Source of the DNA: a virus
Direction: 5' to 3' (one strand)
UHGV virus genome: UHGV-0217160
Length of the DNA: 15,042 nucleotides
Made by a program: the position numbers and the translations under genes. Numbering within the stretch: position 1 is the stretch's first letter; each line of letters begins with the position of its first letter. The notes beneath the pieces are model-generated. The model did not search any database. It was not told where the DNA came from and saw nothing but the letters and a program-made list of their open reading frames with translations. Below are positions 1 through 15,042 of this stretch, piece by piece.

Positions 1-3620
<3,620 letters not shown>

Positions 3621-3640
<20 letters not shown>

Positions 3641-4940
3641 TCTCCCGCATATTGCCAGCATGGCCTTTAATGAGCCGCTGATGCTTGAACCCGCCTATGC
3701 GCGGGTTTTCTTTTGTGCGCTTGCAGGCCAGCTTGGGATCAGCCGCCTGACGGATGCGGTGTCCGGCGACAGCCTGACTGCCCAGGAGGCACTCGCGACG
3801 CTGGCATTATCCGGTGATGATGACGGACCACGACAGGCCCGCAGTTATCAGGTCATGAACGGCATCGCCGTGCTGCCGGTGTCCGGCACGCTGGTCAGCC
3901 GGACGCGGGCGCTGCAGCCGTACTCGGGGATGACCGGTTACAACGGCATTATCGCCCGTCTGCAACAGGCTGCCAGCGATCCGATGGTGGACGGCATTCT
4001 GCTCGATATGGACACGCCCGGCGGGATGGTGGCGGGGGCATTTGACTGCGCTGACATCATCGCCCGTGTGCGTGACATAAAACCGGTATGGGCGCTTGCC
4101 AACGACATGAACTGCAGTGCAGGTCAGTTGCTTGCCAGTGCCGCCTCCCGGCGTCTGGTCACGCAGACCGCCCGGACAGGCTCCATCGGCGTCATGATGG
4201 CTCACAGTAATTACGGTGCTGCGCTGGAGAAACAGGGTGTGGAAATCACGCTGATTTACAGCGGCAGCCATAAGGTGGATGGCAACCCCTACAGCCATCT
4301 TCCGGATGACGTCCGGGAGACACTGCAGTCCCGGATGGATGCAACCCGCCGGATGTTTGCGCAGAAGGTGTCGGCATATACCGGCCTGTCCGTGCAGGCT
4401 GTGCTGGATACCGAGGCTGCAGTGTACAGCGGTCAGGAGGCCATTGATGCCGGACTGGCTGATGAACTTGTTAACAGCACCGATGCGATCACCGTCATGC
4501 GTGATGCACTGGATGCACGTAAATCCCGTCTCTCAGGAGGGCGAATGACCAAAGAGACTCAATCAACAACTGTTTCAGCCACTGCTTCGCAGGCTGACGT
4601 TACTGACGTGGTGCCAGCGACGGAGGGCGAGAACGCCAGCGCGGCGCAGCCGGACGTGAACGCGCAGATCACCGCAGCGGTTGCGGCAGAAAACAGCCGC
4701 ATTATGGGGATCCTCAATTGTGAGGAGGCTCACGGACGCGAAGAACAGGCACGCGTGCTGGCAGAAACCCCCGGTATGACCGTGAAAACGGCCCGCCGCA
4801 TTCTGGCCGCAGCACCACAGAGTGCACAGGCGCGCAGTGACACTGCGCTGGATCGTCTGATGCAGGGGGCACCGGCACCGCTGGCTGCAGGTAACCCGGC
4901 ATCTGATGCCGTTAACGATTTGCTGAACACACCAGTGTAA
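3621..4940 (+). CDS. C: Capsid maturation protease / minor capsid protein C-type (S49/ClpP-like), GTG start
   Basis: The ORF track opens at 3507, but the lambda C N-terminus (TAELRNLPHIASMAFNEP...) begins at GTG 3621, preceded by GAGGAGAAGA. The C-terminal part is the Ala/Gln-rich scaffold-like region. Stop TAA at 4938-4940. Confidence 0.85.
4335..4940 (+). CDS. Nu3: Scaffolding protein Nu3-type (in-frame internal start within C)
   Basis: In-frame ATG at 4335 (MDATRRMFAQKVSAYTG...) sits where lambda Nu3 starts inside the 3' part of C. Called from established lambda gene organisation, not from an independent signal in the sequence. Confidence 0.5.
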   Translation: MDATRRMFAQKVSAYTGLSVQAVLDTEAAVYSGQEAIDAGLADELVNSTDAITVMRDALDARKSRLSGGRMTKETQSTTVSATASQADVTDVVPATEGENASAAQPDVNAQITAAVAAENSRIMGILNCEEAHGREEQARVLAETPGMTVKTARRILAAAPQSAQARSDTALDRLMQGAPAPLAAGNPASDAVNDLLNTPV

Positions 4941-4949
4941 GGGATGTTT

Positions 4950-5282
4950 ATGACGAGCAAAGAAACCTTTACCCATTACCAGCCGCTGGGCAACAGTGAC
5001 CCGGCTCATACCGCAACCGCGCCCGGCGGATTGAGTGCGAAAGCGCCTGCAATGACCCCGCTGATGCTGGACACCTCCAGCCGTAAGCTGGTTGCGTGGG
5101 ATGGCACCACCGACGGTGCTGCCGTTGGCATTCTTGCGGTTGCTGCTGACCAGACCAGCACCACGCTGACGTTCTACAAGTCCGGCACGTTCCGTTATGA
5201 GGATGTGCTCTGGCCGGAGGCTGCCAGCGACGAGACGAAAAAACGGACCGCGTTTGCCGGAACGGCAATCAGCATCGTTTAA
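4950..5282 (+). CDS. D: Head decoration protein, lambda gpD-type
   Basis: [110 protein letters not shown]. The ORF track starts two codons earlier at 4944; the lambda-type start is the second ATG. Confidence 0.9.
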
Positions 5283-5302
5283 CCTTACCCTTCATCACTA
5301 AA

Positions 5303-5324
5303 GGCCGCCTGTGCGGCTTTTTTT
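5303..5324 (+). terminator. D-E intergenic GC hairpin followed by a T7 run (terminator/attenuator-like)
   Basis: GGCCGC-CTGT-GCGGC stem-loop at 5303-5317 followed by TTTTTTT (5318-5324), between the D stop and the E start. Confidence 0.4.
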
Positions 5325-5337
5325 ACGGGATTTTTTT

Positions 5338-5613
5338 ATGTCGATGTACACAACCGCCCAGCTGCTGGCGGCAAATGAGCAGAAATTTAAGTTTGATCCG
5401 CTGTTTCTGCGTCTCTTTTTCCGTGAGAGCTATCCCTTCACTACGGAGAAAGTCTATCTCTCACAAATTCCGGGACTGGTAAACATGGCGCTGTACGTTT
5501 CGCCGATTGTTTCCGGTGAGGTTATCCGTTCCCGTGGCGGCTCCACCTCTGAATTTACGCCGGGATATGTCAAACCCAAGCACTTAGCATGGCTTTCTGA
5601 GGCTTTCGTGTAG
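5338..5613 (+). pseudogene. E: Major capsid protein E (lambda-type), truncated after codon 82 and fused to 9 unrelated codons
   Basis: MSMYTTAQLLAANEQKFKFDPLFLRLFFRESYPFTTEKVYLSQIPGLVNMALYVSPIVSGEVIRSRGGSTSEFTPGYVKPKH matches the lambda E N-terminus, then LAWLSEAFV-stop. Full-length E is ~341 aa, so about 75% of the gene is missing. The break coincides with the start of the island. Confidence 0.85.
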
Positions 5614-5745
5614 TTGCTGGTTTTTACACTTAATCTTTTGATAATAAAGAATAAGTTTATCTGGCGCTTTCACTGAATTTTCCTCGTTATCTGTGTGTTG
5701 CAATCATCTCTGTATTGCAGCTTGTATTGCTTTTTGGGGCTAAAA

Positions 5746-6981
5746 ATGGCTGGCGAGAACAAACTGAGCGACAAAGCGCTTAAAGGATATCTGGGGAAAC
5801 CCAGAGAAAAGCAGATCACCATTGCTGATGGAAAGGGGCTTTCTATTCGTGTGAGTACCAAGGGGGCTGTGAGCTTTGTTTTCTTCTACAGGTTAGCAGG
5901 TGGCCGGGCTGCTCCGGTCTGGCTAACGTTGGGTAAATATCCTGATATGTCACTCAAACAGGCAAGGGAAAAGCGCGACGAGTGCCGTGGTTGGTTGGCT
6001 GACAAACGTGATCCGCGTATCCAGATTAAGATTCAGGCTGAAGAACGCTTAAAGCCGGTCACAGTGGAGGATGCACTAAATTACTGGTATGAAAATTACT
6101 GTAAGGTGCGTCGTAAAACTCATGCTGTAACGCTTGGCAGATTTCGAAAGCATATCTTTCCCTATATCGGTCATTTGCCCGTAAATGACACTCACCTATA
6201 TGAATGGCTGGACTGTTTTGACCGAATTAAACGTAATGCACCAGTTATGGCGGCGTATGTTTTTTCTGACACTAAATTAGCTCTTCGTTTTTGTCGGGTA
6301 CGCCAGTACGCGACGTGTGATGCTTTAAAGGATTTGCGCATGAGTGATGTGGGGCAGATTGCAGGTAAGCGGGATCGGGTTCTGGATGAAGCCGAACTCG
6401 GCCAGCTCTGGAAGGCAATTTTTGTCGAGCCTGATTTAAAACTAATGTCTGAATACACGCGAAAAATGTTTGTGCTTTGTACAGTATTTGGATGTCGAAT
6501 GAGTGAAGCCCGATTATCAGAATGGAGCGAATGGGATCTCGAAAGTTGGGTTTGGACTGTACCAAAAGATCACTCAAAAACTGGTGTTGAAATCGTCAGA
6601 CCAGTACCTGAAATTCTACGACAGTGGGTAACGGATGTTCACGAAGAGACAAAACATACTGGTTATGTGCTGGGAAGTCTGCGAATTAGAGAAAGCGTAA
6701 GCAAGATTGGGGGGAAAATCGGTAAACGTTTGGGCCATGAAAAACAATGGTCACTACACGACCTTAGAAGAACGCTATCTACTCATCTAAGTGATCTCGG
6801 TGTTGAATTTTATGTAGTAGAACAACTGTTAGGCCATGCGCTACCTGGCGTGGCGGGTGTTTATAACCGGAGTAAGTTTATGGCTAAAAAACTGGATGCT
6901 CTGGAACTCTGGACTACATATCTCAATAGCATCGCAGGTGCTGATTCAAAAGTGACAATCCTCAAACAAAAGGCTGGTTAA
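5746..6981 (+). CDS. int: Tyrosine integrase, P4-type (N-terminal arm-binding domain plus C-terminal catalytic domain)
   Basis: MAGENKLSDKALKGYLGKPREKQITIADGKGLSIRVSTKGAVSFVFFYRLAGG... is a typical P4-family integrase N-terminus. The C-terminal region contains HDLRRT...LGH...GVYNRS, consistent with the R-H-R-Y catalytic set. The ORF track start at 5695 is a 5' extension. Confidence 0.9.
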   Translation: MAGENKLSDKALKGYLGKPREKQITIADGKGLSIRVSTKGAVSFVFFYRLAGGRAAPVWLTLGKYPDMSLKQAREKRDECRGWLADKRDPRIQIKIQAEERLKPVTVEDALNYWYENYCKVRRKTHAVTLGRFRKHIFPYIGHLPVNDTHLYEWLDCFDRIKRNAPVMAAYVFSDTKLALRFCRVRQYATCDALKDLRMSDVGQIAGKRDRVLDEAELGQLWKAIFVEPDLKLMSEYTRKMFVLCTVFGCRMSEARLSEWSEWDLESWVWTVPKDHSKTGVEIVRPVPEILRQWVTDVHEETKHTGYVLGSLRIRESVSKIGGKIGKRLGHEKQWSLHDLRRTLSTHLSDLGVEFYVVEQLLGHALPGVAGVYNRSKFMAKKLDALELWTTYLNSIAGADSKVTILKQKAG

Positions 6982-6982
6982 C

Positions 6983-7207
6983 ATGAAAAAAATGGCAATT
7001 GTTGATAAAAAGGGTCTGGAGTACAATCCTAACATCGATCGTATGATCCGTGAGAAAGAATGTCGGGAGCTAACCACTCTTGCGAACAGCACACGCTGGA
7101 AGCTGGAGAAGGAAGGAAAATTTCCTAAGCGGATCAAGATTGGTGCTACAGCTGTGGCGTATCGCCTCTCTGAAATTCAGGCATGGATTAAAGGGGATTG
7201 GAAGTAA
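6983..7207 (+). CDS. alpA: AlpA-family (Phage_AlpA / MerR-like HTH) transcriptional regulator
   Basis: 74 aa; RELTTLANSTRWKLEKEGKFPKRIKIGATAVAYRLSEIQAWI matches the AlpA helix-turn-helix-wing signature. It lies 1 nt after the int stop, the conserved int-alpA arrangement of P4-like elements and Gram-negative PICIs. Confidence 0.85.
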   Translation: MKKMAIVDKKGLEYNPNIDRMIREKECRELTTLANSTRWKLEKEGKFPKRIKIGATAVAYRLSEIQAWIKGDWK

Positions 7208-7239
7208 TTTTAATTATTTTTTATACGGTAGGAATAAGA

Positions 7240-7995
7240 GTGGACTATATAAGCGAAGTTGTTTTGGATAAAGTTGTGAATGAACTTGCAACAAGGGCTA
7301 AAAATGCAAGGAGAGCAAGGGCTCTAATAGGTATGACTATAATTTCTGTGGCCGTAATTCTTTCTGCGTTTATTTCCTATAGACTAACTGATGACTTTTC
7401 ATTAAAAGGGTTTAGAAGTGGTTTGTTCGCTTCTACAATTTCAAATGGATTCAATGATACATCGGGAATACGTGAAGCGTTTAATCTGGAACTATTAAAT
7501 GTATTTCCAGAAACATCGAAGAGTGATTCGATTGCCAAGTTGTTTTCTCAATTAGATGGAGGAACTCCTCAGTCTAGTGGTGAAAATGAAGTATTAAAAA
7601 AAATTACTAAGGAAGAGAAAGACGAAGCTCTTTCTTATGTAAGTAAATTGGTTGATTACTATGTCAAAGTTGCCGCAGCTGAAAATGGACGTCCGGTTAA
7701 CAAAACAGATAATACATATAGTAGTTTGATTAGTTCATTAGCTCTTTCAGCAGGTGCTGTCGGATTTGTATTATATATCTTACAGATAGCAGTTAGTTTT
7801 GTGCGTTATTACTCTAGACTGGCTGAGTTATATGACTCTCAACGGACTGCGTTAATTGCATCTGACGGCAATGTCGAAACGGCAAAAATACTTATGGATA
7901 TATTATCAAATGATCATGTCGGTTTGGGAAAAGAACCAACTACTTTATATGGAAAAGCATTAGATGTAATTGGCGAGGTTGCAAAGTCAAAATAA
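7240..7995 (+). CDS. Hypothetical membrane protein with two predicted transmembrane helices (AT-rich cargo gene)
   Basis: Open frame 7198-7995. Likely start is GTG 7240 preceded by TAGGA (a TTG at 7198 is the alternative). Hydrophobic segments MTIISVAVILSAFISY and LISSLALSAGAVGFVLYILQIAVSFV flank a ~115-aa hydrophilic loop. Hand-counted sample lines are about 35% G+C against about 60% in the lambda-type genes. No recognisable family. Confidence 0.6.
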   Translation: MDYISEVVLDKVVNELATRAKNARRARALIGMTIISVAVILSAFISYRLTDDFSLKGFRSGLFASTISNGFNDTSGIREAFNLELLNVFPETSKSDSIAKLFSQLDGGTPQSSGENEVLKKITKEEKDEALSYVSKLVDYYVKVAAAENGRPVNKTDNTYSSLISSLALSAGAVGFVLYILQIAVSFVRYYSRLAELYDSQRTALIASDGNVETAKILMDILSNDHVGLGKEPTTLYGKALDVIGEVAKSK

Positions 7996-8019
7996 TACTT
8001 GCGAAGGGGGGCGTTTTTG

Positions 8020-8220
8020 ATGTCCCTCCTGTATATTTATCGAGAGGAAAAATATAATTTATTTGGTTGTGGTTTTACTTTTAAATATATGGTGGACCAT
8101 TATTGCTCAAGGTTTTTATACATGGCTTGTAACTTAAAGACTTTCTGTCAACCCCGTACTTTGAAATCTGCACGGTCGCATTCCGTAATTGTTCTTTGTC
8201 GTTCTTGCGAGGTGTGGTGA
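8020..8220 (+). CDS. Possible small Cys-rich ORF (66 aa) downstream of the 2-TM gene
   Basis: ATG at 8020 preceded by AAGGGGGG (spacing 8). Product MSLLYIYREEKYNLFGCGFTFKYMVDHYCSRFLYMACNLKTFCQPRTLKSARSHSVIVLCRSCEVW has 6 Cys. It lies in AT-rich DNA where chance ORFs are easy, so low confidence. Confidence 0.2.
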   Translation: MSLLYIYREEKYNLFGCGFTFKYMVDHYCSRFLYMACNLKTFCQPRTLKSARSHSVIVLCRSCEVW

Positions 8221-8268
8221 TACATCTCTCATGTCAGTTGTTTTTTGACCGTGGGAACATAAAACAAA

Positions 8269-8287
8269 GGCGACAAGAATAGTCGCC
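8269..8287 (-). terminator. Candidate intrinsic terminator for the leftward RHH-SWIM operon
   Basis: GGCGAC-aagaata-GTCGCC stem-loop. On the minus strand it is followed by a U-rich run (complement of 8255-8268 AACATAAAACAAAG), about 70 nt beyond the SWIM gene stop. Confidence 0.35.
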
Positions 8288-8356
8288 AGTGGCATAACAC
8301 TAAACTTAAGCGTATTCAGAATACCAAGTTGTAGGCTGATGGAAAATAGAATTAGT

Positions 8357-8713
8357 TCAATATTTAGGTGGTTCTACAAGAGCGTTTATCATTGCTCTCA
8401 AATTATCTCGGACACTTATCCAAGTCTGTTCTGCTCGTTCTAATTCATCAGTGTACAGCTTTAATGTTTTATCTATGCCATATGTGGCTATTAAATTTAT
8501 AGCTTCTTGTAACTTTTCGGGGTTATTCCTTCTTGGGGGCGTAAATATACCTCGGATTTTTCCGGTGATTAAAGCTTTACGGTGTCTGCATAGAATACCT
8601 TTACTTCCAGCAGGACAATTACAAGTCATGATTAGCGAGCCAGAATCGTTTGATACAGTGACTATGTATACATCCAAACTACTGCTACTTGTTGCGAAGA
8701 ATTCGTATTTCAT
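8357..8713 (-). CDS. SWIM-type zinc-finger protein (hypothetical)
   Basis: 118 aa; contains C-N-C-PAGSKGIL-C-R-H (CxC-x8-CxH), the SWIM zinc-finger signature. Strong SD (AAGGAG, 8 nt upstream on the minus strand). Sits 27 nt downstream of the RHH gene in the same orientation. Confidence 0.6.
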   Translation of the reverse strand: MKYEFFATSSSSLDVYIVTVSNDSGSLIMTCNCPAGSKGILCRHRKALITGKIRGIFTPPRRNNPEKLQEAINLIATYGIDKTLKLYTDELERAEQTWISVRDNLRAMINALVEPPKY

Positions 8714-8740
8714 GTTTTAGCTCCTTGAATTCAGGTATTC

Positions 8741-8935
8741 TTATCCTTTTGGTTCAATTCCGCGACGTAGCAGCTCTTTGCGCCCTAATTCTTTAAGCCA
8801 GTTGGCTAGGCTTACCCCATCGTTACTGGCTTCGTTATCAAACTGCTCCTTCAATTCAGGAACTATGCGCATATGGAACGGTGGGGCCTTTCCTGTGCCT
8901 TTTGGTTTTTTATCGCGCTTAATAATCGTTGACAT
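8741..8935 (-). CDS. Arc/Mnt-like ribbon-helix-helix DNA-binding protein (candidate repressor)
   Basis: 64 aa; PPFHMRIVPELKEQF followed by ASNDGVSLANWLKELGRKEL parallels the Arc repressor beta-strand and helix A (PQFNLRWPREVLDLV...ENGRSVNSEIYQRV). Its start codon abuts the palindromic operators. Confidence 0.65.
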   Translation of the reverse strand: MSTIIKRDKKPKGTGKAPPFHMRIVPELKEQFDNEASNDGVSLANWLKELGRKELLRRGIEPKG

Positions 8936-8991
8936 GTGTACACCTATAGCGTTATGTTTTTATTCGATAGGTGTACACCTTAACACGTGTG
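8934..8991. promoter_or_regulatory. Divergent control region with two copies of a 12-bp palindromic operator (core GTGTACAC) plus an ACACGTGT palindrome
   Basis: ATGTGTACACCT at 8934-8945 (one mismatch from perfect) and the perfect palindrome AGGTGTACACCT at 8969-8980, centres 35 bp apart; ACACGTGT at 8984-8991. Located between the leftward RHH gene and the rightward small-ORF/primase operon. Confidence 0.5.
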
Positions 8992-9074
8992 CATTTAAAA
9001 ACGCAACGCCCCGCAGTGCGGGAACACATGCAGGGCGTCTAACCACCAACGATAGCAACAGTATCGAGGTAGCT

Positions 9075-9278
9075 ATGAGAAATCATACCACACACCCGCA
9101 AGGGCGGGACTCGCACAACCTGAATAAATACATCTGGCGTTTTATCGCCCTGAGCACCGCACAACCACGCGTAATACACATCGAGGCCGCCAGCGAACAG
9201 GAAGCCCGACTGCAATCCCCAACTGGCTACGTGATGATATTCGCCGCCCGTATTCGTCAGGAGGTGTGCCATGAATGA
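9075..9278 (+). CDS. Hypothetical protein (68 aa), first gene of the primase operon
   Basis: ATG 9075 with GAGG 6 nt upstream. The stop overlaps the next start (ATGAATGA). The track's 8778-9278 ORF is a 5' over-extension running antisense through the RHH gene. Confidence 0.45.
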   Translation: MRNHTTHPQGRDSHNLNKYIWRFIALSTAQPRVIHIEAASEQEARLQSPTGYVMIFAARIRQEVCHE

Positions 9279-9495
9279 TCTTTATTTTAAAGTGCTGACA
9301 CATGCTGAAAACGCGCTCGTTTGTGGCAAAAATATGCGAGAAATCTTATCAACCTGGCTTGATGGGACAACAAATGCGGAACACGATGAACGGGATGCTA
9401 ATTTAGCTGGAGCGTTAATTACGTTACTTGATCCTGTCATCAAAGAGCTGGATGAAGCTATAAAAATACACGACCAGAGCTATACCGGAGAATAA
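9271..9495 (+). CDS. Hypothetical protein (74 aa)
   Basis: ATG 9271 with AGGAGG 8 nt upstream; translationally coupled to both neighbours. No family recognised. Confidence 0.55.
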   Translation: MNDLYFKVLTHAENALVCGKNMREILSTWLDGTTNAEHDERDANLAGALITLLDPVIKELDEAIKIHDQSYTGE

Positions 9496-9497
9496 AA

Positions 9498-9785
9498 ATG
9501 AAAAATAAATTTTCTGGCTTTATTGCCAGCGGTCAAACTCATTCAAAAATCAGCCTTGGGGATATTTTCAAAGATAGCTATGGCTATCGGGTAAAGATTA
9601 TTTCGGTTGATGATCGCCGTGTCTCTTATTTGCGTGATGGTTATGATTTTGAATGTGTTATGCCGCGTCAGCAGTTCGAAAGAGATTTCATTCTGGTAAA
9701 AAATTGCAAGACAGATAATCAGAGGCGTTCCGCAGGCTATATCCGCAAAATTCGGGCAATGTTAGTTGCCGGAGGTAACAAATGA
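9498..9785 (+). CDS. Hypothetical protein (95 aa)
   Basis: ATG 9498 with GGAGA upstream; stop overlaps the primase start (ATGA). No family recognised. Confidence 0.55.
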   Translation: MKNKFSGFIASGQTHSKISLGDIFKDSYGYRVKIISVDDRRVSYLRDGYDFECVMPRQQFERDFILVKNCKTDNQRRSAGYIRKIRAMLVAGGNK

Positions 9786-11602
9786 AACGTGCTCCGAACT
9801 TAAAATACCAACCGCGCGACAAAATGACAGAAGTCATCATTTTTGCTGGCAGTGATGCCTGGAGCCATGCAAAAGAATGGAATGAATGGGCGGGTAAGCA
9901 TATTGCAGCAGATGATACACCACCAGTAATTCTGGGTACGGAACAACTGGAAAACCTGGATGATATGCAAATTATCGATGAAGGCCGTCATTATGTGCGT
10001 GTTTATCGTGCCGGAAAGATCGCAGAGAAAAATCTGACGAAGGTTGCGACATTACTTGCTATTGCAGGCGTAAAGGAAGCACGTTGTTACCGTAGCTTTG
10101 TTGATCGAGAGCCTGAAAACTGGACTCCGCGCCTTGTCGGCCTAAAAGCTGAAGCGGAGCATGGGGAAAGTCTGGTGATTGAACTGCCAGTGAAGAAGGC
10201 TGAGCGCAAAAATGACGAGCGTGCTTCATCTTTGGCGTTGAATCAGATGGGGGCCAGCCAGCGCGGTGAAGTTCTCCTTGCACATTACGGCGGCGAACTG
10301 GCAATCAATGCCGACTCTGACACCGTTCATCATTACAACGGCGTTGTATGGGAGCCGGTTCAGGATAAAGAGTTACAGCGTGCTATGGCGCAGATTTTCA
10401 TTGATGCGGAGATCAGCTATTCGCAGAACGCCATTAAATCGGCGGTAGATACCATGAAGTTAAGTTTGCCTGTAATGGGGAATACAGCCCGTAACCTGAT
10501 TGGATTCAGTAACGGGGTATTTGATACCAGAACTGGTAATTTTCGGGAGCATAACAAAAACGACTGGTTGTTAATTGCCAGTGAATTACCTTTCAGCCCA
10601 CCAGCAGAGGGGGAAACGCTGGCAACACATGCGCCGAATTTCTGGAAGTGGTTGCGCCGTTCGGTGGCTGAGAATGACCGCAAGGCAGATCGCGTACTGG
10701 CGGCATTATTCATGGTGCTGGCGAACCGGTACGACTGGCAGTTATTCATTGAGGTAACAGGGCCGGGGGGAAGTGGTAAAAGTGTGATGGCGGAGATTTG
10801 CACCATGCTGGCGGGTAAGGCTAATACAGTATCAGCAAGCATGAAGGCGCTGGAAGATGCAAGGGAACGTGCGTTAGTGGTTGGCTTTTCGCTGATTATC
10901 ATGCCGGATATGACCCGCTACGCTGGTGATGGGGCAGGGATTAAGGCCATTACAGGCGGTGACAAGGTGGCAATTGACCCGAAACACAAAGCCCCCTATT
11001 CAACGCGTATTCCGGCAGTAGTGCTGGCGGTTAACAATAACGCCATGTCATTCAGTGACCGCAGCGGGGGGATCTCACGTCGTCGGGTGATATTCAATTT
11101 TTCGGAAGTTGTACCGGAGAACGAACGCGATTCGATGCTGGCGGAAAAAATAGAAGGTGAGCTGGCGGTAGTGATTCGTCATCTGCTTACACGGTTTGCT
11201 GATCAGGACGAAGCCAGACGCCTGTTATATGAGCAGCAGAAATCTGAAGAAGCACTGGCGATAAAGCGAGAGGGGGATTCGCTGGTGGACTTCTGCGGCT
11301 ATCTCATGGCATCGGTAATGTGTGATGGCCTGTTAGTGGGTAATGCTGAAATTGTGCCATTCAGCCCACGCAGGTATCTCTATCATGCCTATCTGGCTTA
11401 TATGAGGGCACATGGGTTTGGTAAACCTGTAACACTGACGCGCTTCGGTAAAGATATGCCGGGGGCAATGGCGGAATATGGCAGGGAGTATATGAAACGG
11501 AAAACGAAGCACGGTTTGCGTTCAAACGTGACACTGACGGAGGAATCAGAAGACTGGATGCCATCATGTGTATCGGTCACTAATGACGATAGCAAAAATT
11601 AA
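9782..11602 (+). CDS. Phage/plasmid primase-helicase, P4-family (D5/SF3-type NTPase domain)
   Basis: 606 aa; Walker A GPGGSGKSV and a Walker-B-like hydrophobic stretch ending in D (LIIMPDM). Size and position (after int/alpA, immediately before the iteron ori) match the pri/rep gene of P4-like elements and PICIs. Confidence 0.85.
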   Translation: MKRAPNLKYQPRDKMTEVIIFAGSDAWSHAKEWNEWAGKHIAADDTPPVILGTEQLENLDDMQIIDEGRHYVRVYRAGKIAEKNLTKVATLLAIAGVKEARCYRSFVDREPENWTPRLVGLKAEAEHGESLVIELPVKKAERKNDERASSLALNQMGASQRGEVLLAHYGGELAINADSDTVHHYNGVVWEPVQDKELQRAMAQIFIDAEISYSQNAIKSAVDTMKLSLPVMGNTARNLIGFSNGVFDTRTGNFREHNKNDWLLIASELPFSPPAEGETLATHAPNFWKWLRRSVAENDRKADRVLAALFMVLANRYDWQLFIEVTGPGGSGKSVMAEICTMLAGKANTVSASMKALEDARERALVVGFSLIIMPDMTRYAGDGAGIKAITGGDKVAIDPKHKAPYSTRIPAVVLAVNNNAMSFSDRSGGISRRRVIFNFSEVVPENERDSMLAEKIEGELAVVIRHLLTRFADQDEARRLLYEQQKSEEALAIKREGDSLVDFCGYLMASVMCDGLLVGNAEIVPFSPRRYLYHAYLAYMRAHGFGKPVTLTRFGKDMPGAMAEYGREYMKRKTKHGLRSNVTLTEESEDWMPSCVSVTNDDSKN

Positions 11603-11615
11603 ACTTATGGAATAA

Positions 11616-11847
11616 CTGTTCACCACTGTTCACCCTGTCATAAATATCTTTTATATCAGTATATTATAGGGTGAACAGTTATTTATGAACTGTTCACCAA
11701 ACTATTCACTGTTCACCTTTTTGATTGTTTATTGAGCTTCAAGGGTGAACAGTGGTGAACAGTTGGTGAATAGTTTTTGTGAAACTGTTCACCCATTAAC
11801 ATTATGAATTAAAAGAGAAAATATCAAAAGGTGAACAGGTGAAGGGT
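11616..11847. repeat. Iteron-type replication origin: 9 perfect and at least 1 degenerate copy of GGTGAACAG in both orientations, with an AT-rich unwinding block
   Basis: CTGTTCACC at 11616, 11626, 11690, 11709, 11785; GGTGAACAG at 11670, 11744, 11754, 11830; GGTGAATAG at 11765. Tandem copies have 10-11 bp periodicity. AT-rich stretch at 11635-11669. Directly downstream of the primase gene. Confidence 0.8.
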
Positions 11848-11889
11848 TAAAACGCAAAAATTTTAATTTACTGCTGTGAGATAAAGCCT

Positions 11890-12135
11890 ATGACAGCGAA
11901 GCACACAAAAAAATCACAATCGCACGCCCTTGATTTGACGGAACACTGGTTAAGGGTGTCGATAAAAATCATCGACCGCAACGCCGGGGAAGGTTACGCG
12001 AAAGCACATCCCGAACTGATTAGCGCATTCATGACAACGGCGGCTGCAAACTTTGCCACTCTGACCGAACGGGAGATTGCTGAAGCGGAGGAAGTGACAA
12101 CAATCAATATTAAGTCCGGAGAGCAGGCAGCATGA
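11890..12135 (+). CDS. Hypothetical protein (81 aa)
   Basis: ATG 11890; stop overlaps the start of the SSB-like gene (ATGA). No family recognised. Confidence 0.5.
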   Translation: MTAKHTKKSQSHALDLTEHWLRVSIKIIDRNAGEGYAKAHPELISAFMTTAAANFATLTEREIAEAEEVTTINIKSGEQAA

Positions 12136-12581
12136 CGGCGCAAATATCAGTTTACGGGCGGTTGGTGGACGACCCGCAGACAAAACAGACCAGCAAGGGC
12201 ACCCCCATGACGCTGGCGCGTATGGCGGTATCACTGCCCTGCAGTCAGTCGGATGACGGTCAGGCGACGATGTGGTTATCTGTCCTGGCGTTTGGCAGAC
12301 AAGCCGACGCGCTGGCAAAGCATCACAAAGGCGAACTCCTGAGCGTGGCGGGTAACATGCAGATGAGCCAGTGGACTGGACAGAACGGCGAAACGCGGCA
12401 GGGCTGGCAGGTTATCGCAGACAGCGTAATCAGTGCGCGATCGGTGCGACCGGGCGGCAATAAAGGCCAACAGGGGCAGGCTACTGACGCACTGAACAGA
12501 GCAAAACAACAGGCAGATCAGCAAGGAAGCCAGCCACCAGTGGGAGATAATGAGCAATGGGGAGATGATATCCCGTTTTAA
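12132..12581 (+). CDS. Single-stranded DNA-binding protein-like (OB fold with SSB-type acidic C-terminal tip)
   Basis: 149 aa; N-terminal region resembles the SSB OB fold (ISVYGRLVDDPQ...MWLSVLAFGRQADALAKHHKGELLSVAGNMQMSQWTGQNGETRQGWQV), followed by a Gly/Gln-rich linker and the C-terminus DDIPF, as in E. coli SSB. Confidence 0.7.
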   Translation: MTAQISVYGRLVDDPQTKQTSKGTPMTLARMAVSLPCSQSDDGQATMWLSVLAFGRQADALAKHHKGELLSVAGNMQMSQWTGQNGETRQGWQVIADSVISARSVRPGGNKGQQGQATDALNRAKQQADQQGSQPPVGDNEQWGDDIPF

Positions 12582-12600
12582 ATATTGCCAATAAAAAAAG

Positions 12601-12624
12601 CCGGAAAAAATAAATTTTCCGGCA
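12601..12624. terminator. Perfect 9-bp-stem hairpin (GCCGGAAAA / TTTTCCGGC) between the replication module and the capsid operon
   Basis: Stem 12601-12609 pairs with 12616-12624, loop 6 nt. The A-run is 5' of the stem on the plus strand and there is no 3' U tract, so terminator function for the rightward transcript is uncertain. Confidence 0.3.
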
Positions 12625-12797
12625 TGCTACATAAATCCCGACCAAAGGGAGTGAAGATATTAACACTAATTGTCCGCACTGAAGTTGTCACCCCAAAACT
12701 TTATACAACATTGCACTCGGTTGCATGTGTTCGCATGACAAATATCGGTGATAGCATATATCCACAATTATTTTTAATGAATGCAAAGAGGATGCGT

Positions 12798-13838
12798 ATG
12801 GTTGATTTATATTCGCCTACTCAGCTTGTACAGGTGGTTAATGCTGTAGATGTACAAAAACAACTAAATGCGTTGTTTACCAGTTTGTTTTTTACTCGCT
12901 CGGTAATGTTTGAATCGCGCGATATTATTCTTGATACAATCGACGATCCAAATATCCCAATTGCAGCATTTTGTTCTCCTATGGTGGGTAGTAAAGTTTC
13001 ACGTGACGAAGGGTACGAATCAAAAACAATTCGTCCAGGCTATATGAAGCCGAAAAGCAGCATTGATCCAAATAAGTTAGCTGTGCGCCCTGCTGGTGTA
13101 TCACCTGAGCAATACAATGCTTTTGGGGCGCGTAATATTAAAGTTAAACAGGCGATTGTAAATCAAGCTAAAGCTATTCGTGCACGTATTGAATGGCTTG
13201 CCGTTCAGGCAATCACAACGGGGAAAAATATCATTGAGGGCGATGGTATTGAACGTTATGAGCTGGACTGGAATATTAAACCACAAAATATCATCACTCA
13301 GTCTGGCGGTGCTGAGTGGTCAGGTAAGGATAAAGAAACTTTTGATCCAAATGATGATATTGAGAGCTACGCAGAATTTAGTGAGGGCGTCACTAATATC
13401 ATCATTATGGGCGGTAATGTATGGAAGAAATACCGTTCATTCAGAGCGATAAAAGAGGCTCTGGATACCCGTCGTGGTTCTAATTCCGAACTGGAAACGG
13501 CCCTTAAAGACCTTGGTGATTCGGTGAGTTTTAAAGGATATATGGGCGATGTTGCGATTGTTGTTTACAGCGGGCGTTATACCGACGAGGACGGAACTGA
13601 AAAACATTTCCTTGATCCTGATTTGATGGTGCTTGGCAATACGGCTCTTCAGGGGATTGTCGCCTATGGCGGTATTCAGGATCCGGAGCTAATCCGAATG
13701 GGGCTGACTAAAGCCGAACTTGCACCGAAAAACTATATTGTGCCTGGTGATCCTGCTATTGAATATGTGCAGACACATTCAGCACCACAGCCAATACCGG
13801 CCCGCATCAATCGTTTTGTTACCGTTCGCATTGGCTAA
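12798..13838 (+). CDS. Major capsid protein, lambda gpE-family (HK97-fold), diverged island-encoded paralog
   Basis: 346 aa from ATG 12798 (AAGAGGA upstream), which aligns with the lambda E start. Alignable end to end with lambda E: MVDLYSPTQLV / MSMYTTAQLL; GYMKPK / GYVKPK; ITQSGGAEWSGKDKETFDPNDDIESYA / ITQSGGTEWSKRDKSTYDPTDDIEAYA; DTRRGSNSELETALKDLG identical over 14 of 18; GDVAIVVYSG identical. The track ORF from 12585 is a 5' over-extension through the hairpin. Confidence 0.88.
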   Translation: MVDLYSPTQLVQVVNAVDVQKQLNALFTSLFFTRSVMFESRDIILDTIDDPNIPIAAFCSPMVGSKVSRDEGYESKTIRPGYMKPKSSIDPNKLAVRPAGVSPEQYNAFGARNIKVKQAIVNQAKAIRARIEWLAVQAITTGKNIIEGDGIERYELDWNIKPQNIITQSGGAEWSGKDKETFDPNDDIESYAEFSEGVTNIIIMGGNVWKKYRSFRAIKEALDTRRGSNSELETALKDLGDSVSFKGYMGDVAIVVYSGRYTDEDGTEKHFLDPDLMVLGNTALQGIVAYGGIQDPELIRMGLTKAELAPKNYIVPGDPAIEYVQTHSAPQPIPARINRFVTVRIG

Positions 13839-13847
13839 GGGGGAGCA

Positions 13848-14189
13848 ATGGCTACTCATTACACTGAACTCATGGCTGGCACTGAAGCACTGGTGACTAC
13901 GCTGGGGATATTTTCAGCTAATAAAGGGGTAATTCCTGCATTTACGCCACTGATGCAGGAAGATGCAACAGGTGCACTGGTAGTATGGGATGGTTCGAGC
14001 GTAGGTAAAGCGGTTTATGTTTCCGCTGTACAAATCGACACCGCGAAAAAAACACAGGCTCAGGTCTATAAGACAGGTGTCTTAAATGTTGATGCTCTGA
14101 ACTGGCCTGAGTCTGTTAAAGAACTGTCAGTAAAGGTTGCAGCGTTTGTTGGCTCAGGTATTTCTGTTCAGCCGCTGGCTCGTGTGTAA
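13848..14189 (+). CDS. Head decoration protein, lambda gpD-family, diverged island-encoded paralog
   Basis: 113 aa. AFTPLMQEDATGALVVWDGSSVGKAV...VYKTGVLNVDALNWPE...AAFVGSGISV aligns with lambda [27 protein letters not shown]...[16 protein letters not shown]...[11 protein letters not shown]-rich SD AAGGGGGAG. Immediately downstream of the E-like gene, the same D/E pairing as lambda but in reverse order. Confidence 0.8.
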   Translation: MATHYTELMAGTEALVTTLGIFSANKGVIPAFTPLMQEDATGALVVWDGSSVGKAVYVSAVQIDTAKKTQAQVYKTGVLNVDALNWPESVKELSVKVAAFVGSGISVQPLARV

Positions 14190-14200
14190 AGGGGGATACA

Positions 14201-14584
14201 ATGCAGAATGATTACAATGACCTTAAGCCAATTGCCGAAATGATGTACCCGAATCAAGCTGTAGAGGAATTAAAAGCTATCGCTGACAAAATGTGTTTAA
14301 GCGAGCGCCTTGTTGATATGAATCAGGTGATGGAAATTACAACCCTGAGTCGTCGTACACTGCTAAACCTTGAGGCTAGTGGAGAGTTCCCGGAGCGTGT
14401 GCAGGTTACGGAAGGGCGTAAGGCCTGGTATTTAAGTGAAGTGATCGACTGGATAAATAATATTCCTCGCGCTTCTGAATATTGCCGCGTACCTGTCCCA
14501 AAAAAGCCAGATGCGGCGCTATGCCTCAAGATTGAGCGTGTACGCCGCAATGCACGGGATGGTCGCTATAAGCTGATTGGTTGA
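14201..14584 (+). CDS. AlpA/MerR-type winged-HTH DNA-binding protein encoded immediately upstream of cos (candidate packaging specificity or regulatory factor)
   Basis: 127 aa; MEITTLSRRTLLNLEASGEFPERVQVTEGRKAWYLSEVIDWI matches the AlpA HTH-wing pattern and parallels the Nu1 N-terminal HTH (LADIFGASIRTIQNWQEQGMPVLRGGGKGNEVLYDSAAVIKWY). SD AAAGGGGGA, like the D-like gene. Stop is 27 nt before cosQ-type sequence. Confidence 0.7.
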   Translation: MQNDYNDLKPIAEMMYPNQAVEELKAIADKMCLSERLVDMNQVMEITTLSRRTLLNLEASGEFPERVQVTEGRKAWYLSEVIDWINNIPRASEYCRVPVPKKPDAALCLKIERVRRNARDGRYKLIG

Positions 14585-14610
14585 TGAAATTAGGGCCCGC
14601 TCTGGCTGGC

Positions 14611-14810
14611 GGGTCCTTTCCGGCGATCCAGAACGTTACGGGGCGTCAGGCGCGCAGTTTTTCGCTATTTGTGAAAATTTTCCTGTTTAAGGCGTTTCCG
14701 TTCTTCTTCGCCGTAACTTAATGTTTTTATTAAAAACACCCCCTAAAAAGAAAGGAAACGACAGGTGCTAAAAACAGGCTTTTTGGCCTCTGTCGTTTCC
14801 TTTCTCTGGT
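14611..14810 (+). other. cos: cos packaging site, lambda-type: cosQ, cosN (variant 12-nt cohesive-end sequence) and cosB (R3, IHF-site region, R2, R1)
   Basis: GGGTCCTTTCCGG...GTTACG (cosQ side), then by homology the nick site between 14640 and 14641 with predicted overhang GGGCGTCAGGCG (lambda: GGGCGGCGACCT, as recalled). R3 CGTTTCCGTTCT at 14693-14704, R2 GAAAGGAAACGACA at 14749-14762, R1 TGTCGTTTCCTTTCTCT at 14791-14807. Confidence 0.8.
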
Positions 14811-14829
14811 TTTGTCCGTGGAATGAACA

Positions 14830-15042
14830 ATGGAAGCCAACAAAAAGCAGCTGGCTGACATTTTCGGTGCGAGTATCCGTACCATTCAGAACTAGCAGGA
14901 GCAGGGAATGCCCGTTCTGCGAGGCGGTGGCAAGGGTAATGAGGTGCTTTATGACTCTGCCGCCGTCATAAAATGGTATGCCGAAAGGGATGCTGAAATT
15001 GAGAACGAAAAGCTGCGCCGGGAGGTTGAAGAACTGCGGCAG
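14830..15042 (+). pseudogene. Nu1: Terminase small subunit Nu1-type, interrupted by an in-frame TAG at codon 22; 3'-partial at window end
   Basis: ATG 14830: MEANKKQLADIFGASIRTIQN, then TAG (14893-14895) where lambda Nu1 has Trp, then QEQGMPVLRGGGKGNEVLYDSAAVIKWYAERDAEIENEKLRREVEELRQ in the same frame to the window end. AGGAG at 14897-14901 precedes the in-frame ATG at 14908. Confidence 0.75.

Follow-up and report, generated by a model that had tools for sequence, protein, structure and literature searches.

The 15,042-nucleotide stretch of UHGV virus genome UHGV-0217160 analysed here (hereafter the window) carries at 5573-5745 what is very probably the attL of an ~11-kb phage-inducible chromosomal island (PICI) embedded within its helper (HE-PICI), which belongs to site group E:Phage_cap_E:80 and entered the helper major capsid gene E by means of its own integrase. 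HE-PICIs were described by Tommasini, Mageeney and Williams (2023, NAR Genom Bioinform; PMC10111431), with 201 instances at site E:Phage_cap_E:80, and the window junction is a member of this already known class, published in 2023. With the window, one more copy becomes available, and newer collections, i.e., complete E. coli genomes and IMG/VR contigs, confirm the class independently.

The left part of the window is occupied by the head genes of a lambda-like prophage, all of which are on the plus strand (Table 1). Gene E starts with an ATG at 5338 and reads normally through V78 K79 P80 K81 H82 (5569-5583). Past H82, the disrupted ORF of E enters the island, where it continues with L-A-W-L-S-E-A-F-V before it terminates at a TAG at 5611-5613. 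Translation thus places the boundary between E and the island at 5583/5584, after E codon 82, in agreement with the preliminary description of this DNA, and the same stretch of E is labelled by PGAP as 'major capsid protein, incomplete, missing C-terminus' in the two closest complete genomes, MLI106K3 (L001) and S1bESBLb (L073). The island parts of these two genomes are ~100% identical to the window, and their E genes consist of 246-nt and 789-nt pieces that flank an island of 10,955 bp. In S1bESBLb, these 10,955 bp extend from core to core, and the attR core is found at window-equivalent positions 16528-16537; the window contains 86% of the island, whose right end is ~1.5 kb past the window end. 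What lies beyond the window in MLI106K3 and S1bESBLb is the rest of a Nu1-like pseudogene, a DUF2971 gene on the opposite strand, a non-coding arm and then E, which resumes at codon 79 directly beyond the island in every locus with a right flank. Compared over 1-5286 and 5287-15042, the best-matching genome S1bESBLb differs from the window by 56 mismatches, of which 55 fall in the head genes of the helper and a single one (7026) in the 9.5 kb of the island. We infer the attR of the source genome from such genomes, the islands of which differ by 1 base in 9.5 kb.

Table 1. Features of the window and of the compared loci.
Feature	Position	Strand	Notes
Terminase A, partial	ends 1839	+	
W	1836-2042	+	
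Portal B	2039-3640	+	
Protease C/Nu3	3507-4940	+	
Decoration D	4944-5282	+	
Helper major capsid gene E, N-terminal 82 codons	5338-5583	+	B arm of attL; translation, PGAP annotation of relatives
att core, attL copy	5573-5582	+	AACCCAAGCA; E codons 79-82 (K P K H)
attL			...GGATATGTCA-AACCCAAGCA-CTTAGCATGG...; from the window
attR			...TTGACTCATGT-AGCCGAAGCA-TGAAGTGAATCC...; from L001/L073
Intact E			GGATATGTCA-AGCCGAAGCA-TGAAGTG; uninterrupted genes
P' arm of attachment site, core to int	5584-5745	+	AT-rich, highly conserved
Third, degenerate motif copy	5694-5701	+	TGTGTTGC; 17 bp upstream of doubled motif
Doubled motif	5708-5731	+	ctcTGTATTGCagctTGTATTGCt; candidate arm-type binding site
Tyrosine integrase int, 411 aa	5746-6981	+	Arm-DNA-bind_3 PF13356 (3.7e-19), Phage_integrase PF00589 (1e-16)
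AlpA-family regulator, presumed excisionase	6983-7207	+	Pfam PF05930, 3.1e-15
Variable zone	7198-9495	mixed	differs from island to island; hypothetical 265-aa ORF (+), SWIM (-), HicB-like (-), Icd-like (+), small ORF (+)
SWIM zinc-finger gene	8357-8713	-	
HicB-like antitoxin gene	8741-8935	-	
Replication zone	9782-12581	+	Pfam
D5_N/Pox_D5 primase-helicase	9782-11602	+	followed by a small ORF before SSB
SSB	12132-12581	+	Pfam
Late zone	12798-14584	+	Pfam PF03864, PF02924, PF05930
Island's own E-family capsid gene	12798-13838	+	
D-family decoration gene	13848-14189	+	
Second AlpA-like gene	14201-14584	+	
Island cos region and Nu1-like small-terminase pseudogene	14609-15042	+	belongs to island, not resumed phage
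Variable cargo, L001	30489-31247		
Variable cargo, L002	15663-16538 and 24113-24874		
Variable cargo, L004	22880-24022		
Variable cargo, L074	9737-11453		

A 10-bp core with the general form A-R-CC-N-AAGCA is found on both sides of the island. In the window lineage, the attR core AGCCGAAGCA matches the attL core AACCCAAGCA at 8 of 10 positions, and the attL and attR of L001 alone are insufficient to place the crossover. A junction table of 72 loci, which comprises 4 E. coli genomes and 68 IMG/VR contigs collected with the integrase protein, revealed both alleles at both ends. Of the 51 loci that have both ends, 36 have the core as a perfect 10-bp repeat, and the rare variants GCCC, GCCA and GCCT also agree between attL and attR. 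The preliminary description recognised no att repeat and had named beforehand a core duplicated at both island ends as the observation that speaks against its reading; such a duplicated core is what these loci possess. Its observation of no repeat in common with the right end is true of the window only, because the right end was assumed to be at 14585-14640, where the second AlpA-like ORF ends and the island's own cos/Nu1-like segment starts; the true attR carries the core. The possibility, also raised there, that the true att lies outside the window proved correct in the closest genomes, and the continuation of E from codon 83, which it proposed to look for elsewhere, is found beyond the island in L001 and L073.

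Mismatched cores occur in both directions among the E. coli-type loci, with ACCC in attL and GCCG in attR (n = 6) or GCCG in attL and ACCC in attR (n = 3), and the attL and attR cores of the diverged locus L054 share no identical run longer than 4 nt. The longest run that is identical between attL and attR in the window lineage is AAGCA, which is shorter than the typical overlap of 6-8 bp. Judging from the aligned cores, either heterology in the overlap must be tolerated or one core copy must have been converted later. In the diverged loci, AAGCA is always found in attL and AAACA in attR, which indicates that the P'-derived sequence of attL begins at or before core position 8. The core has two synonymous sites, which are tightly linked to each other (AAG-CCG or AAA-CCC); attL, attR and intact E each have both alleles, in every combination. 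A purely island-derived origin of AAACCC was ruled out, as intact E genes with AAACCCAAGCAT are common; given that AAG-CCG and AAA-CCC both occur in intact E genes, neither allele is attributable solely to the island. Hundreds of intact E genes have the paired synonymous allele AAA-CCC. From the mismatched cores it is conceivable, albeit rather unlikely, that recombination by the integrase extends over a heterologous overlap, with the heteroduplex segregating to either allele, in which case AAA-CCC in intact E genes could be a footprint of satellite integration and excision. If so, past HE-PICI traffic would be readable from uninterrupted prophage capsid genes. Joining the two pieces of E at the core in silico yields an uninterrupted E of 341 aa, and capsid genes that are intact in other E. 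coli (H31) match its DNA with 100% identity.

The 160-bp region upstream of int was described as AT-rich with a short direct repeat, and both features were confirmed: the P' arm is AT-rich and contains TGTATTGC twice, at 5711-5718 and 5723-5730. There are 3 copies of this motif in the window, compared with 0.61 expected by chance. Measured from the first core base, the two copies start at +138 and +150 in all 68 of 68 loci, and the degenerate copy TGTGTTGC is at offset +121 in 52 of the 68. In the other (P) arm, a co-oriented TGTATTGC pair is found in 54 of 54 loci, either at -97/-85 (45 loci) or at -96/-84 (9 loci). Except for this pair and TTGACTCATGTA, which is immediately left of the core in attP, the P arm is highly variable between islands, while P' arm identity is 97-100% in E. 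coli loci and 83-95% in diverged loci. Fixed spacing in both attP arms amid diverging sequence is the pattern expected of sites for an arm-type recombinase or its accessory proteins, and the doubled motifs are likely the binding sites of the integrase arm domain or of AlpA. The attP of HE-PICIs is reported to carry a doubled motif, tgTGTATTGCantgTGTATTGCa, at distances of 81 ± 2 bp (upstream) and 132 ± 2 bp (downstream) from its centre (PMC10111431), and the offsets found here agree with these published distances from the attP centre. The earlier suggestion that TGTATTGC could be an arm-type integrase site is consistent with that published motif. As to the region around the junction (5250-5800), a sigma-70 scan returned one weak promoter-like match, TTTACA-18-AAGAAT (9/12), compared with 0.7 expected, and a terminator scan of the same region found none. 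An IHF-like candidate match, TATCAAAAGATTA, was seen by eye on the minus strand at about 5633-5645.

P4-type integrases were expected in the preliminary description to sit next to a tRNA gene. ARAGORN predicted 0 tRNA/tmRNA genes and an Rfam scan gave no match at the gathering score, both over the whole window, which excludes a tRNA-type att site and bears out the statement that the junction contains no tRNA-like sequence. The premise itself does not apply to this clade of integrases, which targets prophage late genes. A tRNA-targeting P4-type island was also considered and rejected, since the flank is E coding sequence and attL has no tRNA/tmRNA 3' end. The integrase shares Arm-DNA-bind_3 and the catalytic domain with the P4/CP4-57-type integrases that target tRNA 3' ends, along with an AlpA partner and a D5-type primase; unlike in those elements, the junction has no tRNA, the target is a phage protein-coding gene and the attP contains no replacement 3' part.

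Of 5,426 complete E. coli genomes, 175 have the segment containing int and the P' arm. The E junction is present in 171 of those, i.e., 171/5,426 (3.2%), in different lambdoid prophages. An intact (empty) E site, which the preliminary description had suggested looking for in related genomes, is present in about 3,100 E. coli genomes. Among the 68 IMG/VR loci, which extend the recurrence to species beyond E. coli, the N-terminal part of E ends at the same nucleotide in every informative locus, and the same junction is kept in loci whose int and E are 78-85% and 77-82% identical to the window at the DNA level, respectively. The host prophages also differ: that of L001 has hokD and tRNA genes, that of L002 (PK8275) has ompC and iss, that of L003 has cold-shock (csp) genes and that of L004 (IAI39) is beside a tRNA-Arg gene, with its int cut by IS3.

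These results bear on how the island entered E. The preliminary description considered a non-integrase route, i.e., illegitimate or cos-proximal recombination. By such a route, or by a packaging accident near cos, the island would have been placed between E codon 82 and the cos site of the phage. Such an origin would fit with the absence of a second core copy within the window and with the sequence after 14600, which is similar to lambda cos and then Nu1 and can be read as phage DNA resuming. However, the helper has its own cos and Nu1 in their normal place upstream of gene A in L001 and L073, and these are only 69% identical to the cos/Nu1 segment of the island. Moreover, E picks up again at codon 79 beyond the island, and the junction is nucleotide-identical in different prophages and with integrase and E alleles that have diverged. 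Since 171 E. coli genomes have the junction at an identical nucleotide, the core is at both ends and the arm motifs occupy fixed positions, we consider entry by a non-integrase route extremely unlikely. Homologous recombination between the E-like capsid gene of the island and helper E is even less credible, to the point of being negligible. The island capsid gene retains PGY-x-KPK at the equivalent position, which would fit with such an exchange, but it is internal to the island rather than at its end and shares only 41% protein identity with restored helper E, and its DNA at the equivalent site, ATGAAGCCGAAAAGCAGC, sits amid unrelated sequence. The ends of the island are instead int-proximal and cargo-proximal non-coding arms with conserved motifs.

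The recurrence of the junction could also reflect a single ancient insertion, after which the copies spread vertically or by prophage; recurrence would then be uninformative about site specificity and the integrase might no longer use the site. Among the 171 E. coli copies, many differ little from one another (int 99-100%), and some helpers have decayed, e.g., by IS3 in IAI39 and by a frameshifted portal gene in 13E0767, as would be expected if this were the case. The host prophages nevertheless differ in early, lysis and cargo genes, and the attL and attR core alleles co-vary across E alleles, as repeated integrations would give. The contrast with S1bESBLb (1 base in the island versus 55 positions in the helper head genes) likewise argues against it: the same island occupies head-gene regions that are ~1% diverged, which suggests that the island moved recently or that the head region recombined. 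Excision has also been measured experimentally for the near-identical island 11capE (PMC10111431), and a single ancient insertion is in our view highly improbable.

Insertion by the island's own integrase is the reading that we prefer. The order of Pfam domains is Int, AlpA, D5 primase, SSB, Phage_cap_E, HDPD and second AlpA, and the zones follow the PICI order of integration, variable (Bro), replication and late. The int, alpA, primase and capsid genes are all on the plus strand and co-oriented with helper genes A-W-B-C-D-E. Thus, the island lies within a prophage late gene and is co-oriented with it, which is the arrangement that characterizes HE-PICIs. The published att identity block of the site group is found at both ends, as attL in the window and as attR in L001, L073 and, overall, 51 loci.

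The closest characterized relative is Eco567.11capE, an 11-kb PICI of E. coli NRG857c (L074), which lies in a lambdoid prophage's capsid gene and has a 10-bp identity block (PMC10111431). Precise excision of 11capE after mitomycin C was demonstrated by qPCR and deep sequencing, which detected both attB and attP, and virions of 11capE or its helper were not recoverable by the authors of that study (PMC10111431). The supplementary alignments of the same study include the attL sequence of the window and the identity blocks aacccaagca, agccgaagca and agcccaagca (PMC10111431). The integrases of 11capE and the window are identical at 410 of 411 residues, the one change being A55D, and on this identity the window integrase is predicted to belong to the 11capE subclade. 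Both islands are ~11 kb, share the E target codon, the 10-bp identity block, the attL sequence, the doubled TGTATTGC motif in both arms and the gene order, and are 98.7% identical in nucleotide sequence across their replication and late zones. The differences lie in the zone after alpA and in the attR-side cargo (SWIM, HicB and DUF2971 in the window lineage versus HEPN and DUF262 in 11capE), in the Nu1-like pseudogene, which 11capE is without, and in the core copies, which are mismatched here (ACCC/GCCG) whereas those of 11capE form a perfect repeat. The helper prophage of the window is also not the icd-integrated one.

The Gram-negative PICIs, of which EcCICFT073 is an example (Fillol-Salom et al., 2018; PMC6092414), share the int-alpA-primase organisation, a size of ~11 kb, a lambdoid helper, their own cos site and, commonly, an E-like capsid gene. 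Classical PICIs occupy a chromosomal site apart from the helper, whereas the window island sits within the late operon of its helper and disrupts one of the helper's genes. Assignment to the classical Gram-negative PICIs was rejected, as the island is found inside the head-gene cluster of a lambdoid prophage, and not at a separate chromosomal site, in every genome examined.

We propose that the island's own tyrosine integrase catalysed the site-specific recombination by which it entered, with the exchange taking place inside the 10-bp core A-R-CC-N-AAGCA. An integrase tetramer may bridge the core and the doubled motifs, and AlpA may function as the directionality factor. Excision within the core would restore the 341-codon E. 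Because E is split without a replacement 3' part, helper capsid protein is impossible until the island excises, and expression of E would be delayed until then; the helper late transcription may meanwhile read through into the co-oriented island, which could be packaged via its own cos. A satellite that sits in the capsid gene of its helper, and so blocks helper heads until it leaves, follows an unusual strategy, by which it is replicated, and probably transcribed, together with the helper. For annotation, junctions between a truncated capsid gene and an integrase gene should be read as the attL of HE-PICIs and not as prophage decay or assembly error.

The cos segment of the island has features of its own. 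The cosN-equivalent 12-mer of the island is GGGCGTCAGGCG (14641-14652) and that of the resident helper is GGGCGGCGACCT (L001, about 14206-14217), which is the canonical cosN of lambda. Between island and helper, 6 of the 12 positions differ, while the flanks GTTACG and TTTTCGCTATTT are conserved between them; the packaging specificities of the island and the resident helper may not be shared. The Nu1-like pseudogene starts with an ATG at 14830, has an in-frame TAG at 14893-14895 (codon 22) and is cut by the window end. It is annotated as 'terminase small subunit, internal stop' in L001 (29831-30382) and L073, and the PK8275 island has an intact equivalent (L002, 22881-23423). The N-terminal half of the pseudogene appears similar to the lambda type, whose Nu1 has Trp at codon 22, and its C-terminal half appears to diverge from the resident helper Nu1.

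Two spots in the island, after alpA and beside attR, are variable, and their cargo differs among copies, which carry genes for DUF2971, TIR-domain and abortive-infection proteins, or HEPN and DUF262. The genes at these spots look like exchangeable anti-phage defence cargo. The SWIM and HicB-like genes of the window are on the strand opposite to all core island genes, and a HicA toxin partner was not noted. In E. coli IAI39 (L004, 12733-14912), an IS3-family element removed int codons 1-108, attL and the helper head genes, and the stranded island still adjoins the C-terminal part of E.
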